From Candidatus Nomurabacteria bacterium (GTDB taxonomy: Bacteria; Patescibacteriota; Minisyncoccia; Phycocordibacterales; UBA9973): a DNA stretch of 57,309 nt. The stretch covers positions 1 to 57,309 of the forward strand of contig CALRHG010000002.1 in the NCBI GenBank assembly GCA_943359365.1. Reading direction: 5' to 3'. Below are positions 26,923-57,309 of this stretch, piece after piece (positions within the stretch are counted from its first letter, which is position 1; every line of letters begins with the position of its first letter). The notes beneath the pieces are model-generated. The model had not been told where the DNA came from. It saw only the letters and a program-made list of their open reading frames with translations, and did not search any database. Made by a program: the position numbers and the translations under genes.

Positions 26923-28371
26923 ATGTCTCAAAAAAAATCTTTTTACATTACGACAACTCTGCCATATGTGAACTCCGATCCGCATATCGGTTTTGCCATG
27001 GAAATTATCCGGGCCGATGTCGTGGCTCGGGCCAAACTCATACAAGGATATGAAGTATTTTTCAATACCGGCACGGACGAACACGGCGCTAAAATTTTCG
27101 CCGCCGCAGTCGCAGAGGGGAAAGACGTCAAAGAATATGTGGATGGATACGAAGCAAAATTCCGCGGGCTGGATGAATTGCTTGGAATTTTAGACGATGT
27201 GCATTTTATCAGGACGACTGATCCGCATCACATATCCGCCGCGCAGGAATTCTGGAGACGCTGCAATGATAACGGATATATTTATAAAAAAATATATAAG
27301 GCGAAATATTGCGTCGGTTGCGAGCTGCAAAAAACCAATTCAGAATTAAATGAAAAAGGACAGTGCCCGCTTCATCCCAACAATAAAATTGAGCTGATTG
27401 ACGAGGAGAATTACTTTTTTCAATTTTCTGCCTTTCAAAAGCCTCTCCTCGAATTATACGAAAAAAATCCAAATTTCGTCTGGCCTGTTTCCCGCTACAG
27501 TGAAATAAAATCTTTTGTGGCGAGAGGTCTCGAAGATTTTTCTATTTCCCGCCTGAAGTCCAAAATGCCCTGGGGTGTGCCTGTGCCGGGGGACGACAAG
27601 CATATAATGTATGTATGGTTTGACGCGCTGGTTAATTACATTTCTACTCTTGGCTGGCCGGAAAACAAAGAAAACTTTGAAAAATTCTGGGTAAATGGCA
27701 CGCCGATGCAATATTGCGGCAAGGATAATCTGCGCCAACAGTCGGCGATGTGGCAGGCGATGCTCATGGCTGCCGGATTGCCACCAACTCACTTTATCGT
27801 TATCAACGGCTTTCTGACGGCGGAAGGCGGAGTCAAAATGTCTAAATCCATTGGGAATGTCGTCAGTCCCTACGATTTGGTAAAAGAATACGGCATGGAC
27901 GCCGTCCGTATTTTTTTTCTGAAAGAAGTTAGCCTCTTTGAAGACAGCCCTTTTACCATGGAGAGATTTAAAGATGCGTATAATGCCAATCTGGCAAATG
28001 GTCTGGGCAATTTAGCGTCTCGCATTTTGACTCTATCTTCCAAGTATCTTGAGAAGTCTCCTGAAATTCCGAAGAATCTGATACTCAGAGATTTTTTTGA
28101 CCATCTGGAAAAGTTTGATATTAAGGAATCGGTGGATTATATCTGGAGTGAAATTGCGGAAATTGATAAGTCGATTCAGGAGACCGAGCCTTTTAAATTA
28201 GTCAAAGTAAATGAGAAAGAAGGCAAAGAATTAATTTCTAACTTAGTGGTGCAATTGTTTACTATTGCCAATATGCTGAAGCCTATACTGCCTCAGACGA
28301 GCGACATCTTAAAGACTTTGATTAAAGAAAATAAAAAGCCCGAGACTCCTTTATTCCCCAGAAAAGATTAA
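26923..28371 (+). CDS. metG: methionyl-tRNA synthetase (short form)
   Basis: 482 aa with LPYVNSDPHIGF (HIGH), a CVGCE/CPLH zinc knuckle and KMSKSIGN. Confidence 0.95.
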   Translation: MSQKKSFYITTTLPYVNSDPHIGFAMEIIRADVVARAKLIQGYEVFFNTGTDEHGAKIFAAAVAEGKDVKEYVDGYEAKFRGLDELLGILDDVHFIRTTDPHHISAAQEFWRRCNDNGYIYKKIYKAKYCVGCELQKTNSELNEKGQCPLHPNNKIELIDEENYFFQFSAFQKPLLELYEKNPNFVWPVSRYSEIKSFVARGLEDFSISRLKSKMPWGVPVPGDDKHIMYVWFDALVNYISTLGWPENKENFEKFWVNGTPMQYCGKDNLRQQSAMWQAMLMAAGLPPTHFIVINGFLTAEGGVKMSKSIGNVVSPYDLVKEYGMDAVRIFFLKEVSLFEDSPFTMERFKDAYNANLANGLGNLASRILTLSSKYLEKSPEIPKNLILRDFFDHLEKFDIKESVDYIWSEIAEIDKSIQETEPFKLVKVNEKEGKELISNLVVQLFTIANMLKPILPQTSDILKTLIKENKKPETPLFPRKD

Positions 28372-28373
28372 GA

Positions 28374-28411
28374 ACCTCACCCCAGCCCTCTCCTTGTTAA
28401 GGAGAGGGGGA
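28374..28411 (+). repeat. GC-rich hairpin repeat, family A (38 nt identical to 39184-39221)
   Basis: ACCTCACCCCAGCCCTCTCCTTGTTAAGGAGAGGGGGA. The internal stem CCCTCTCCTT/AAGGAGAGGG spans 28386-28408. Confidence 0.85.
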
Positions 28412-28452
28412 AAGTCGTTGACTTTTTTATGAAAAGGAGTAATATATAAGGT

Positions 28453-28530
28453 ATGCAAAGTACAGTTCCAAAAATGATGGCAATGATGATGGGAACCCAA
28501 AAATTCGGGGCTATTCATTGCGTTGCATAA
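28453..28530 (+). CDS. candidate Met-rich leader peptide (25 aa, MQSTVPKMMAMMMGTQKFGAIHCVA)
   Basis: Five ATG codons within six consecutive codons (28474-28491). Its 3' third overlaps the first arm of alternative hairpins. Confidence 0.5.
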   Translation: MQSTVPKMMAMMMGTQKFGAIHCVA

Positions 28531-28584
28531 TTAAACTTTAAAACATGAACACAAAAAATAGCCCCGAATAAGGGCTATTTTTTT
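28503..28584 (+). promoter_or_regulatory. candidate leader-peptide attenuator: antiterminator (1:2) versus intrinsic terminator (2:3)
   Basis: ATTCGGGGCTATT (28503-28515) is the exact reverse complement of AATAGCCCCGAAT (28557-28569). AATAGCCC (28557-28564) also pairs with GGGCTATT (28572-28579), which runs into a T tract ending at 28584. Confidence 0.6.
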
Positions 28585-28615
28585 ACTCTATTATTAATAA
28601 CTTTTAAAAAATCAT

Positions 28616-29308
28616 ATGCAAGAAAAACTAAAAAATTATCTTAAAGATGCAGGGCTGCAAATTTCCAATTTGGAAGTTGCAGAAAAGTTTGGCAATGATT
28701 TAGGTGCTGTTCTGGAGACAGTATTAAATACACAGGAAGATGTAGAAAAGTTGCTTACTTATCAAGTGCCAAAACTCGGGGAAGACGGGATCGTTTCTAT
28801 CATAGATGAATTAAGCGACACTCCGTATAAGTTAAAAAAAATTCTACTGTACAATAATTTTAATGATGAAGAAATTAATAAATTGGTTTATAAGCTAAAT
28901 AAAGTTATGGAATTGTTGCACAGTGAAATCGGCTCTGATTGGACGGGAATTTACAAAAAACTAAATACGGAGACGGGGCCCGCTCTGGTTAAATTGGCCT
29001 ATAAAGGCATTGCAAGCAGAGTGGAATTTCCTCTGACGAAAGAATTTTCCAAACACAGCACTAACTCTACCGTCGGCCTATCTGGCAAAGCGGTTTTAGT
29101 GACTAACGTAGGGAAGCATAGACAAGAAGGCAAGCCGTATTACACCTACGATGAAAAAATAAAATCCGAATTGTGCATGCCAATTTTTTCGAAAGATAAA
29201 GAAGTAATTGGAATTATTAATCTTGAATCCCTGCAGGAAAACTTTTTCGATGAAGAAAAAATAGAAAAAGCGGCAGTGGCTTGTGTATTGCTGTCGGAAA
29301 AATTATAA
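28616..29308 (+). CDS. GAF-domain protein (fRMsr/GAF_2-like fold with an N-terminal extension)
   Basis: 230 aa. The C-terminal ~130 aa show W.GIY..., SELCMPIF and IGIINLES...F.EE, the pattern of free-Met-sulfoxide-reductase-type GAF domains. Confidence 0.6.
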   Translation: MQEKLKNYLKDAGLQISNLEVAEKFGNDLGAVLETVLNTQEDVEKLLTYQVPKLGEDGIVSIIDELSDTPYKLKKILLYNNFNDEEINKLVYKLNKVMELLHSEIGSDWTGIYKKLNTETGPALVKLAYKGIASRVEFPLTKEFSKHSTNSTVGLSGKAVLVTNVGKHRQEGKPYYTYDEKIKSELCMPIFSKDKEVIGIINLESLQENFFDEEKIEKAAVACVLLSEKL

Positions 29309-29320
29309 TTGGTCATTGTT

Positions 29321-30175
29321 ATGACCCCCAAATACATAGACATACACAGCCATGTAAACTTCAAAGCGTTCGACGAGGATCGAGATGAAGTTATTCGCCG
29401 TGCTTTGGCGAATGATACTTGGATAATCAATGTGGGCACGCAGGTGGACACTTCCCAAAAGGCGGTGGAGATGGCAAATCAGTATCCTGAGGGCGTTTAC
29501 GCTATTATTGGGTTGCACCCTATACACACCGGCGCTTCATATCATGATGAGAAAGAATTGGGTGAAGGGGGAAAAGAATTTACTTCGCGCGGAGAAAGTT
29601 TCGACAAAGAATCTTACCGAGAACTTTTGAAAGACCCGAAAGCAAATAAAAAAATAGTGGGCATAGGGGAATGCGGGTTGGATTATTATAGGTGTACGCC
29701 GGAATCAATTGCAAAACAAAAAAAAGATTTTATTAGCCAGATAGAATTGGCGAATGAATTTAATAAGCCTTTGATGCTGCATATCCGCAATAATCCTGAA
29801 GACAAAATAAAAAATGCATACAAAGATAGTCTTGAAATTTTAAAACAGCACGCGAAGGTCAAAGGTGATGTACATTTTTTTGCGGGGACCATAGAAGAAG
29901 CAAAAAGTTTTGTTGATTTCGGCTTCGCTCTTTCTTTTACAGGAGTTATAACTTTTACCAAGGATTATGATGAAGTCATTAGAAACACTCCGCTTGATAT
30001 GATTATGTCTGAGACAGATTCTCCCTATGTGACGCCCACGCCATACAGAGGTAAGAGAAATGAGCCTTCTTATGTGCGGGAAGTGGTCAAAAAAATTGCT
30101 GAGGTTAAAAACTTGCCTGAAGAGAAGGTTGCAAAGGCAATAATAGAAAATGCTAAGCGGGTGTTTACTTTCTAG
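29321..30175 (+). CDS. tatD: TatD-family metal-dependent hydrolase/DNase
   Basis: Start set at ATG 29321. Motifs DIHSHVN, GECGLDY, LHIR, HFFAG and ETDSPY. Confidence 0.85.
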   Translation: MTPKYIDIHSHVNFKAFDEDRDEVIRRALANDTWIINVGTQVDTSQKAVEMANQYPEGVYAIIGLHPIHTGASYHDEKELGEGGKEFTSRGESFDKESYRELLKDPKANKKIVGIGECGLDYYRCTPESIAKQKKDFISQIELANEFNKPLMLHIRNNPEDKIKNAYKDSLEILKQHAKVKGDVHFFAGTIEEAKSFVDFGFALSFTGVITFTKDYDEVIRNTPLDMIMSETDSPYVTPTPYRGKRNEPSYVREVVKKIAEVKNLPEEKVAKAIIENAKRVFTF

Positions 30176-56286: not shown

Positions 56287-56489
56287 GTTTGTAAAATCAG
56301 GACGAATGACACTTTGAAAATTGAAAAATCTATCAAGAACTTGGAAGGGGTCTTCCGAGGCTTAGATAGATAAAGGCCAAAAAGTTACTTTAGGTAGCGA
56401 GCGGTCGCAAACAAAGTATCTGTTAATTTTTTTGGCTTTGTTTTCTCCTCGCCGAAAGGCGAGGATTGTGGTTTTCAAATTTCTTAACA

Positions 56490-57309
<820 letters not shown>

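Follow-up and report, generated by a model that had tools for sequence, protein, structure and literature searches.

The leader region between metG and the GAF gene

The DNA analysed here, a stretch of 57,309 nucleotides (nt) from a Candidatus Nomurabacteria bacterium that is referred to below as the window, carries an AI-2E transporter gene, metG (26923-28371), a gene for a GAF-domain protein, tatD, rpsF and ssb around the region of interest. Between metG and the GAF gene lies a candidate methionine-responsive leader, which comprises a mini open reading frame (ORF) with a dense run of methionine codons, several RNA segments able to pair in alternative ways and a predicted hairpin with a T tract (Table 1). 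An earlier reading of this sequence, called here the original prediction, had interpreted the region as a leader-peptide attenuator with methionine codons.

The ORF of 25 codons and its five ATG codons in six consecutive positions had been placed exactly by the original prediction. Its codons are ATG CAA AGT ACA GTT CCA AAA ATG ATG GCA ATG ATG ATG GGA ACC CAA AAA TTC GGG GCT ATT CAT TGC GTT GCA TAA, and the stop codon (28528-28530) follows the 3' part of segment 2. A run of at least five ATG in seven codons is found once in the window and once in 533 kb of related genomes read in six frames, and 100 shuffled versions of the window contain none; Met runs of such density are very rare by chance.

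Two helices compete downstream of this run. ATTCGGGGCTATT at 28503-28515 and AATAGCCCCGAAT at 28557-28569 are exact reverse complements, giving the 13 bp that had been predicted, and a repeat finder extends the arms of this antiterminator to 22 nt (28503-28524 with 28548-28569, 86% complementary). A terminator pairing with 28572-28579 that runs into a T tract had also been claimed; it is present, with a stem longer than proposed, as AAAAAATAGCCC (28553-28564) pairs at 12 of 12 positions with GGGCTATTTTTT (28572-28583) and seven T stand at 28578-28584. Because both helices use 28557-28564, the antiterminator and the terminator exclude each other, and the choice between two partners described in the original prediction holds for this segment. 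A generic terminator scan of the window did not list the hairpin 28553-28583, probably because the stem was extended through A/T pairs, after which too few T were left, and the repeat finder and folding were used instead.

The transcript containing the antiterminator (28453-28571) folds with -32.7 kcal/mol (z = -4.4, none of 200 shuffles being as good), and the terminator region with -14.1 kcal/mol (z = -5.4 relative to shuffles). A third pairing, of segment 1 with the 3' part of segment 2 (28480-28492 with 28515-28526), occurs in the minimum free energy (MFE) structure of the first 80 nt. The same structure contains a short pairing of the 5'-terminal AUGCAA (28453-28458) with the complementary UUGCAU (28523-28528) next to the stop codon; both motifs are conserved in most homologous copies, and their pairing could sequester the start codon of a leaderless mRNA.

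Table 1. Positions of the leader elements and of the associated genes and signals in the window
Feature	Positions	Strand	Remarks
Promoter-like TTGACT-16 nt-TAATAT	28418-28445	+	promoter scan; -10 box ends 7 nt before the leader ATG
Leader mini-ORF	28453-28530	+	25 codons plus TAA; peptide MQSTVPKMMAMMMGTQKFGAIHCVA; read from the sequence
Regulatory codon run ATG ATG GCA ATG ATG ATG	28474-28491	+	5 Met in 6 codons
Segment 1, GCAATGATGATGG	28480-28492	+	proposed anti-antiterminator arm; inside the Met run; pairs with 28515-28526
Segment 2	28503-28529	+	core ATTCGGGGCTATT (28503-28515) pairs with segment 3
Segment 2, 3' part, TCATTGCGTTGC	28515-28526	+	partner of segment 3 and, in the proposed 1:2 helix, of segment 1
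Segment 3	28545-28569	+	core AATAGCCCCGAAT (28557-28569), antiterminator with segment 2; 28553-28564, 5' arm of the terminator
Segment 4, GGGCTATTTTTT, plus T tract	28572-28584	+	with 28553-28564, predicted intrinsic-terminator hairpin; T tract 28578-28584
Possible weak proximal GAF promoter TTTACT-17 nt-TAAAAA	28582-28610	+	ends 5 nt before the ATG; read from the sequence; uncertain
GAF protein gene	28616-29308	+	230 aa; Pfam GAF; N-terminal extension of ~90 aa plus fRMsr-like GAF domain
tatD-family gene	29309-30175	+	abuts the GAF gene
Example gene starts	2846, 7719, 9427, 14462, 20663, 21257, 25835, 33214, 38729, 51763, 54512		TAnnnT; no Shine-Dalgarno

Homologous copies and the constraints on RNA and reading frame

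Fifteen distinct homologous copies of the leader were recovered in Patescibacteria (Paceibacteria/Minisyncoccia) by a covariance model at E < 1e-10: that of the window and those of the loci L010, L093, L008, L012, L099, L100, L117, L124 (= L181), L139, L154, L166 (two copies), L173 and L178. Three routes led to them. Homologues of the GAF protein gave L010 (MQSKAKDMMMGMMMNSRTFVVAYCVA) and L093 (MQAKAPKMMMAMMMRNPIVRGYPLRSID), and homologues of a different cargo gene gave L178 and L181. A metagenome scan with the pattern ATGATGATGN{16,34}TTGCGTTNCATA, filtered by nhmmer, gave L099, L100, L117, L124, L139, L154, L166 and L173; its 83 pattern matches were mostly due to chance, 12 loci (8 distinct sequences) being homologous by nhmmer, and the same nhmmer run found the leaders of L008 and L012, upstream of a gene of ~390 aa that precedes the GAF gene. 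The metagenome pattern demanded three ATG in a row (ATGATGATG), and the downstream genes formed part of no search pattern. Seven copies (L010, L093, L008, L012, L178, L181 and the second copy of L166) were found without a Met requirement. Four to six Met within 5-7 codons are present in 14 of the 15 copies overall and in 6 of the 7 found without requiring ATG repeats. The GAF homologues of L006, L008 and L094 have no leader directly upstream, the leader of L008 and L012 lying one gene further up, and the SAM_HAT gene of a member of the Kerfeldbacteria (L184) has no leader. The second copy of L166 (L166:2706-2846, approximately equal to L172:10490-10630) stands directly after rplU and precedes a small ORF; its own ORF, MQYGLAQNTKTKKLNRKFGVAYCVA, has many Lys and Thr residues. 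This copy may have degenerated, or it may represent a switch of different specificity.

The antiterminator is the helix with the clearest record of compensatory change. In the alignment of the copies, 90.9% of the cells of the 2:3 helix are paired, compared with 33-53% when the partner is slid; eight pairs are changed on both sides (2.5 +/- 1.1 in shuffles) and the covariation score is 0.190 (0.120 in shuffles), with none of 500 shuffles reaching the observed value on any of these measures. Seven copies close the helix with G-C and three with A-U; at another position G-C stands in nine copies and A-U in two. The divergent copy of L012 rebuilds the helix from different bases, CCAAGGGGCC... pairing with ...GCCCCTTTGG. 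The mini-ORF, the Met run and the helix that the original prediction, with its three segments, had numbered 1:2 (2:3 in Table 1) are conserved in relatives, with covariation; a lack of such conservation had been named there as grounds for rejecting the idea.

The terminator hairpin and a U-rich tail were found in all 14 copies folded, with energies from -10.7 to -16.4 kcal/mol and with stems of different sequence (UAGCCC/GGGCUA, CAGCCC/GGGCUG, CCAGCC/GGCUGG, CAGCCUC/GAGGUUG), several of the variants being compensated. MAFFT left the 3' arms of the terminator out of register, and folding of each sequence and alignment to the covariance model were used instead. On the model-guided alignment the helix is 87.9% paired, a figure that undercounts the pairing since four stems are still out of register. 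In most copies the T tract is directly followed by GTTCTTT(G) (L139, L117, L124, L154, L173, L099, L008, L100, L166). The motif is repeated after another 20-40 nt in at least six copies, as well as in the divergent L012; the window does not have it.

The proposed pairing of segment 1 with segment 2 also recurs: 92.6% of its cells are paired, compared with 24-57% when the partner is slid, and in the full-length MFE structure of most relatives the Met run GGCAAUGAUGAUGA is base-paired to YUCRUUGCGUUGC, which forms the 3' half of segment 2. Within this half, TTGCGTTGC is invariant in 11 of the 15 copies, carries one substitution in three and is replaced by unrelated sequence in L012. Its near-invariance would be explained by a partner that consists of unchangeable AUG codons. 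The 1:2 pairing, and hence a classical design of four segments and not of three, appears plausible from these comparisons. The full-length MFE structure is the terminator state in 10 of 14 copies, and when the transcript is cut before segment 4 the antiterminator forms in 12 of 14; in these folding models the two states are close in energy and balanced. The idea that the absence of a ribosome leads by design to read-through was dropped as a general claim, since the terminator is the MFE structure in those 10 copies.

The kind of constraint changes along the leader. All 15 copies retain an ORF, 78-90 nt long. Its ATG keeps its place with respect to the promoter, and between this ATG and the last codon of the Met run the copies differ in length by 3 or 6 nt only. 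The N-terminal half MQ(Y/S)(K/R)AQN and the spacing MMAMMM are fairly conserved; the run may be interrupted by a codon for A, G or T or by P-G, and it holds 4 to 6 Met codons. Just after the run, an indel of 1 nt creates two C-terminal frames (...FGVAYCVA* and ...IVRGYSLRCIN*) while the nucleotides TTCGGGGYTRYTYRTTGCGTTGCATAA are conserved across both, and in both frames the stop codon stands no more than about 9 nt from where segment 2 ends. Because this 1-nt indel sits on conserved nucleotides, the region after the Met run is constrained as RNA and not as peptide. Sequence comparison thus indicates that the reading frame matters through the Met run and that, beyond it, the RNA matters and the peptide does not, a pattern expected of a leader-peptide attenuator, which argues against both a micro-protein and an untranslated RNA.

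The distance from the last Met codon to segment 2 had been raised as a caveat in the original prediction, which had counted 11 nt. This spacer is conserved, at 11-12 nt in 13 copies with a Met run and at 9 nt in the divergent L012, and it is judged to be no problem, 11-12 nt being about the distance that a ribosome covers downstream of its A site. Given this reach, a ribosome halted at any point of the run would mask segment 1, and even at the last Met codon it should stop barely short of the antiterminator arm and leave this arm free.

The promoter-like pair ahead of the leader had also been noted in the original prediction. It was found by the promoter scan and it recurs in relatives; on its own it is not significant (3 sites found in the window, 3.1 expected), and its weight comes from its conservation. 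A TTGACT or TTGATT box with a -10 box of the TTAAAT/TAATAT/TTAACT type recurs in 11 relatives, the -35 box standing 28-31 nt before the leader ATG in the copies with an intergenic promoter and the spacer being of ~17 nt. In the copies after rplU, a -10-like TAAAAT lies at the same distance, inside the end of rplU. Neither in the window nor in the copies is a conserved or usable Shine-Dalgarno sequence found before the leader ORF. For most genes of the window, too, no Shine-Dalgarno sequence precedes the ATG, and a TAnnnT-like -10 box lies 5-8 nt ahead of it (examples in Table 1), which suggests that leaderless mRNAs are common in this organism. As leaderless starts seem to be common in the genome and the -10 box ends 7 nt before the leader ATG, the leader transcript is probably leaderless as well.

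The T tract is shared in part with the -35 box of the proximal promoter-like site of the GAF gene, a site that lies 3' of the terminator stem. Homologous sites (TTTACT-16/17-TATAAT/TAAAAT, 7-8 nt before the GAF ATG) are present in L006, L008 and L094, where no leader stands directly upstream. The -10 box of the window lacks the final T and is, in our judgement, a weaker match to the consensus. In L006:430-520, L008:2905-3000 and L094:505-600, a conserved region between the oxidoreductase-like gene and the GAF gene carries two overlapping AT-rich hairpins, CTTTTCAAAgttATGAA..TTCATgaTTTTGAAAAG and AAAGTGAAAATgtcgATTTTTACTTT, just before the proximal promoter; this region may be an operator or a second switch.

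Downstream genes and genomic setting

In every copy the leader has the same orientation as a cargo gene and lies directly upstream of it. A check proposed with the original prediction was to look for the leader ahead of orthologous GAF or methionine genes, and it was found before GAF genes and before other genes of methionine metabolism. In L166/L172 the cargo is a relative of the methionine S-methyltransferase MmtN (PDB 7vvv, E = 1.8e-30; the entry is MmtN, PMC9135737), followed by a homocysteine S-methyltransferase (PF02574, E = 1.8e-57; also NF007020). In L117 and L178 it is a protein of ~275 aa of the S-adenosylmethionine (SAM) hydroxide adenosyltransferase family (SAM_HAT, PF20257 at the cut-off). 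The reaction of this family yields adenosine and methionine. The MmtN-like protein and the homocysteine S-methyltransferase of L166/L172 would presumably form an S-methylmethionine cycle. Most of the listed homologues of the ~275-aa protein carry the SAM_HAT domain, and one is named SAM-dependent chlorinase/fluorinase; the protein has one non-significant match in PDB (E 0.86) and nothing in NCBIfam, so that the link comes from Pfam and from the homologues. SAM_HAT-like relatives, recognised by eye in the translations, also follow the leader in L124/L181, in L154 and, frameshifted, in L099. In L008 and L012 a protein of 390 aa precedes the GAF protein; distant homologues of it carry Pyr_redox_2 and are named flavin adenine dinucleotide (FAD)-dependent oxidoreductase, and it has no match in PDB or NCBIfam. 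The GAF protein stands alone behind the leader in the window, L010 and L093. Small ORFs (~40-80 aa) follow the leader in L100 and L139, and one of ~180 aa in L173, all with no assigned function. The identifiable downstream genes are thus methionine-related, and most are predicted to yield methionine.

The GAF protein of the window has its best PDB sequence matches among fRMsr proteins, at a weak E of about 0.008. Its AlphaFold2 model (predicted local distance difference test, pLDDT, 91) gives as best Foldseek matches, among others, the fRMsr structures 1f5m, 4mmn (TM 0.83), 3mmh, 3ksf and 1vhm, with GAF domains that are not fRMsr, such as 3ci6, interleaved at similar scores, and relatives of the protein are named L-methionine (R)-S-oxide reductase in JGI. 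The GAF fold is common to it and to fRMsr/MsrC (1f5m, 1vhm, 3ksf, 3mmh, 4mmn), from which it differs by the N-terminal extension of ~90 aa and by missing Cys residues. Most members of the family keep PYYECD, whose Cys aligns with the catalytic Cys of yeast fRMsr (HIACD), and GSCS. Directly behind the leader the Cys of the catalytic position is replaced (PYYTYD in the window, PYYKLD and PYYRYD in L010 and L093); these three proteins also lack the Cys of GSCS, and their loci have no adjacent FAD oxidoreductase-like gene. The window protein keeps only Cys187 (SELCMPI), and from its sequence a canonical reductase activity is doubtful. A plausible course would be the reduction of a leader-oxidoreductase-GAF arrangement to leader-GAF by loss of the oxidoreductase, after which the Cys-less GAF protein may have changed its function.

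The leader and the GAF gene appear to have entered the metG-tatD interval together. In 80 species representatives with metG 58-75% identical to that of the window, the common order is AI-2E, metG, tatD, rpsF, with metG and tatD abutting in many of them, and neither a GAF gene nor a Met-run leader was found around metG/tatD in the stretches examined. Given these 80 relatives, the window and L010 (metG 86% identical) carry a leader-plus-GAF insertion between metG and tatD, so that by sequence comparison tatD is ancestrally adjacent to metG and outside the inserted cassette; tatD is probably on the same transcript as the GAF gene. The cassette of leader plus gene has the opposite orientation in L178 with respect to metG and tatD, from which it follows that the leader belongs to the downstream gene and not to metG.

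Several other features of the setting were observed. After the metG stop codon stands a perfect GC-rich hairpin, CCCTCTCCTTgttAAGGAGAGGG (window 28381-28412, hairpin 28386-28408); the stretch CCTCACCC(C/T)AGCC ahead of it is nearly identical in L124/L181, whose metG is much more diverged, and the hairpin may be either a terminator of metG that has been conserved or a small repeated element. In L139 an ORF of 420 aa (L139:91-1350, oriented coordinates), by eye an IS110-like transposase, lies immediately upstream of the leader, a hint that the metG-tatD interval is an insertion hotspot. At its far end (56486-57309) the window runs into the 5' part of a gene for 23S rRNA. The 56 kb before it contain neither a 16S rRNA gene nor a tRNA gene, and no tRNA or tmRNA was found in the window; the rRNA genes appear to be unlinked.

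Proposed mechanism, rival explanations and known systems

The attenuation reading of the original prediction is supported by these comparisons and is refined from three segments to four: we consider it likely that the element is a ribosome-mediated leader-peptide transcription attenuator with methionine as the regulatory codons. From the sequence we infer a transcription start, translation of the leader, stalling, termination and a response to methionine in the following manner. Transcription would start at the ATG at 28453 or within a base or two of it, giving a leaderless mRNA, and a ribosome would translate the 25-codon leader. With charged elongator Met-tRNA in plenty, the ribosome would pass the Met run and segment 2 to reach the stop at 28528, segment 3 would pair with segment 4, and the hairpin 28553-28583 with its T tract would terminate transcription ahead of the GAF gene. 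With Met-tRNA scarce, the ribosome would stall at 28474-28491, covering segment 1 and ending ~11 nt short of segment 2; segment 2 (28503-28529) could then pair with segment 3 (28545-28569) once the latter is made, no terminator would form and the polymerase would read into the GAF gene. With no ribosome on the leader, segment 1, that is the Met run, could pair with the 3' half of segment 2. We read the association with different cargo genes as one starvation signal that would drive methionine salvage across the relatives; the host bacteria are generally thought to make few amino acids themselves.

A number of points weigh against this interpretation. The energy of the 1:2 pairing is no better than that of shuffles (z = -0.09), and this pairing shows no covariation, the Met run being unable to vary. 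In the window, L093 and L100 the full-length MFE structure is the antiterminator, which means that termination there would have to depend on kinetics or on the ribosome. Eight copies were retrieved by the pattern that requires ATGATGATG, and their Met runs are partly a matter of construction; the paralogous copy L166:2706-2846 keeps the scaffold and has no Met run. The leader ORF has no usable Shine-Dalgarno sequence, and its translation depends on the probable leaderless start. Some transcription of the GAF gene from the promoter-like site at 28582-28610, independent of the attenuator, is possible. Not all cargo fits a methionine-yielding role, as MmtN consumes methionine and three cargo genes are of unassigned function, and the window GAF protein, which lacks the Cys of the catalytic position, has a weaker link to methionine than its relatives. 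Predicted leaders of this kind can also fail in actinobacteria, where the candidate regulatory codons of the Streptomyces coelicolor ilvB leader were mutated without effect (PMC1262725).

Three other accounts of the leader as a functional unit were weighed. The same RNA switch could be operated by the nascent peptide, MQYxAQN-MMAMMM arresting the ribosome in response to methionine or SAM and not to the charging of Met-tRNA, as in leaders of the TnaC or SpeFL type. The fairly conserved N-terminal MQ(Y/S)(K/R)AQN and MMAMMM spacing speak for such a sensor, as does a cargo that concerns methionine and SAM; we nevertheless think it unlikely, because the interrupting codon and the number of Met vary, the peptide after the run is not conserved and occurs in two frames, and a codon run for the amino acid that most of the downstream enzymes produce is the hallmark of attenuation based on charging. 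That the unit is a small gene in its own right, for a Met-rich micro-protein or a small RNA, beside a GAF gene with its own proximal promoter, is quite unlikely on present evidence. This reading would account for the promoter-like site and the terminator that bracket a unit of ~135 nt, and for the TTTACT-17-TAAAAA that separates the terminator from the GAF ATG and has homologues in the promoters of those GAF genes that have no leader next to them; attenuator RNAs and leader peptides are also reported to act in trans in other bacteria. Such a gene would, however, need no conserved and covarying helix competing with its own terminator, the C-terminal half of the peptide is not conserved, and the unit is always co-oriented and directly upstream of a cargo that is mostly related to methionine or SAM, even in the inverted cassette.

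That the leader is an untranslated structured RNA, such as a riboswitch or a protein-binding leader in which AUGAUG..AUGAUGAUG is an RNA motif and not a row of codons, seems very unlikely. Complementarity to the invariant UUGCGUUGC could by itself explain the conservation of the Met run, and no Shine-Dalgarno sequence precedes the ORF; but the frame is open from an ATG next to the promoter in 15 of 15 copies, insertions and deletions preserve the frame until the run ends and not beyond, the stop lies at the end of segment 2 in either frame, and the conserved blocks are all used by three simple helices that leave no pocket-like junction, with no Rfam family at threshold. A chance ORF next to the ordinary 3' terminator of metG can be given hardly any weight, as the comparisons between genomes contradict it. 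The element does start 82 nt after the metG stop codon, and its hairpin with A and T flanks resembles a bidirectional terminator; yet metG has a GC-rich hairpin of its own (28386-28408), copies of the leader also follow rplU or are inverted relative to metG, no copy was found near metG in the stretches examined of the 80 related species, and Met runs this dense are very rare. The methionine-codon attenuator remains the reading that we prefer.

Leader-peptide attenuation is textbook knowledge for Trp, His, Leu, Thr, Phe and Ile/Val, and methionine genes are thought to be governed by SAM riboswitches, T-boxes or proteins. The original prediction had stated that the classical set has no member with Met codons, in agreement with what we found: Rfam has nothing at the gathering threshold in the region (best Thr_leader, 24.4 bits where 55 are needed and matching the terminator only; Phe_leader, 15 where 55 are needed), no SAM riboswitch or T-box matches 28300-28700 even at E <= 10, and a full-text literature search gave neither a methionine leader-peptide attenuator nor a cis-regulatory RNA for Patescibacteria. 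We lean towards the view that the element is the first methionine-specific attenuator and the first cis-regulatory switch in Patescibacteria (the candidate phyla radiation, CPR), that it defines a methionine-salvage regulon and that its leader is leaderless, so that both initiation (fMet-tRNA) and elongation (Met-tRNA) would depend on the amino acid sensed. If so, a Met-codon attenuator would fill a conspicuous gap among leader-peptide attenuators, and it would raise the mechanistic question of how a switch works if translation of its sensor cannot even begin without the amino acid that is sensed. The regulon would comprise a SAM hydrolase-like protein, an S-methylmethionine cycle, an fRMsr-like system that has an FAD reductase of its own, and several small proteins, and it would show how reduced symbionts meet a shortage of methionine and give a physiological context to unannotated genes. 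It would also offer a regulatory handle in uncultivated CPR bacteria, by which genes sharing the switch (the FAD oxidoreductase-like gene paired with GAF, the Cys-less GAF gene, the SAM-hydrolase-like gene and the small ORFs) could be assigned to methionine salvage.

The closest counterparts in design are trpL, hisL, leuL, thrL, pheL and ilvL of Escherichia coli, which share with the present element the ORF with a codon run, the alternative 2:3 and 3:4 helices, the predicted terminator before the structural genes and a stop codon that would let the finishing ribosome mask segment 2; a 1:2 helix with the regulatory codons in segment 1 would be a further parallel. None of these leaders, nor of the Rfam families Trp_, His_, Leu_, Thr_ and Phe_leader, uses Met, and none matches here by sequence or covariance model. 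The present leader further differs from them in being probably leaderless, in a cargo for salvage and interconversion and not for de novo synthesis, in its host and in a ribosome-free equilibrium that favours the antiterminator in some copies, the window included. Outside Proteobacteria, a histidine leader has been described for hisS/hisZ in Firmicutes (PMC2965389) and Ile/Val/Leu leaders for ilvB and leuA in Actinobacteria (PMC1262725); the mechanism has thus been proposed in several phyla and can be exchanged with T-boxes or riboswitches ahead of equivalent genes, these leaders serving other amino acids and having no homology to ours. The actinobacterial survey lists methionine control as S-box only (PMC1262725). 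SAM riboswitches (S-box and others) and Met-specific T-boxes have the same target genes and the same termination or read-through output as the leader described here, whereas they sense SAM or, through RNA-RNA contact, uncharged tRNA-Met, and the sensor here would be the translating ribosome. The class of mechanism is a textbook one, and what appears to be new is the amino acid to which the switch would respond, a leader that is probably leaderless, a regulon of the salvage type and the phylum.

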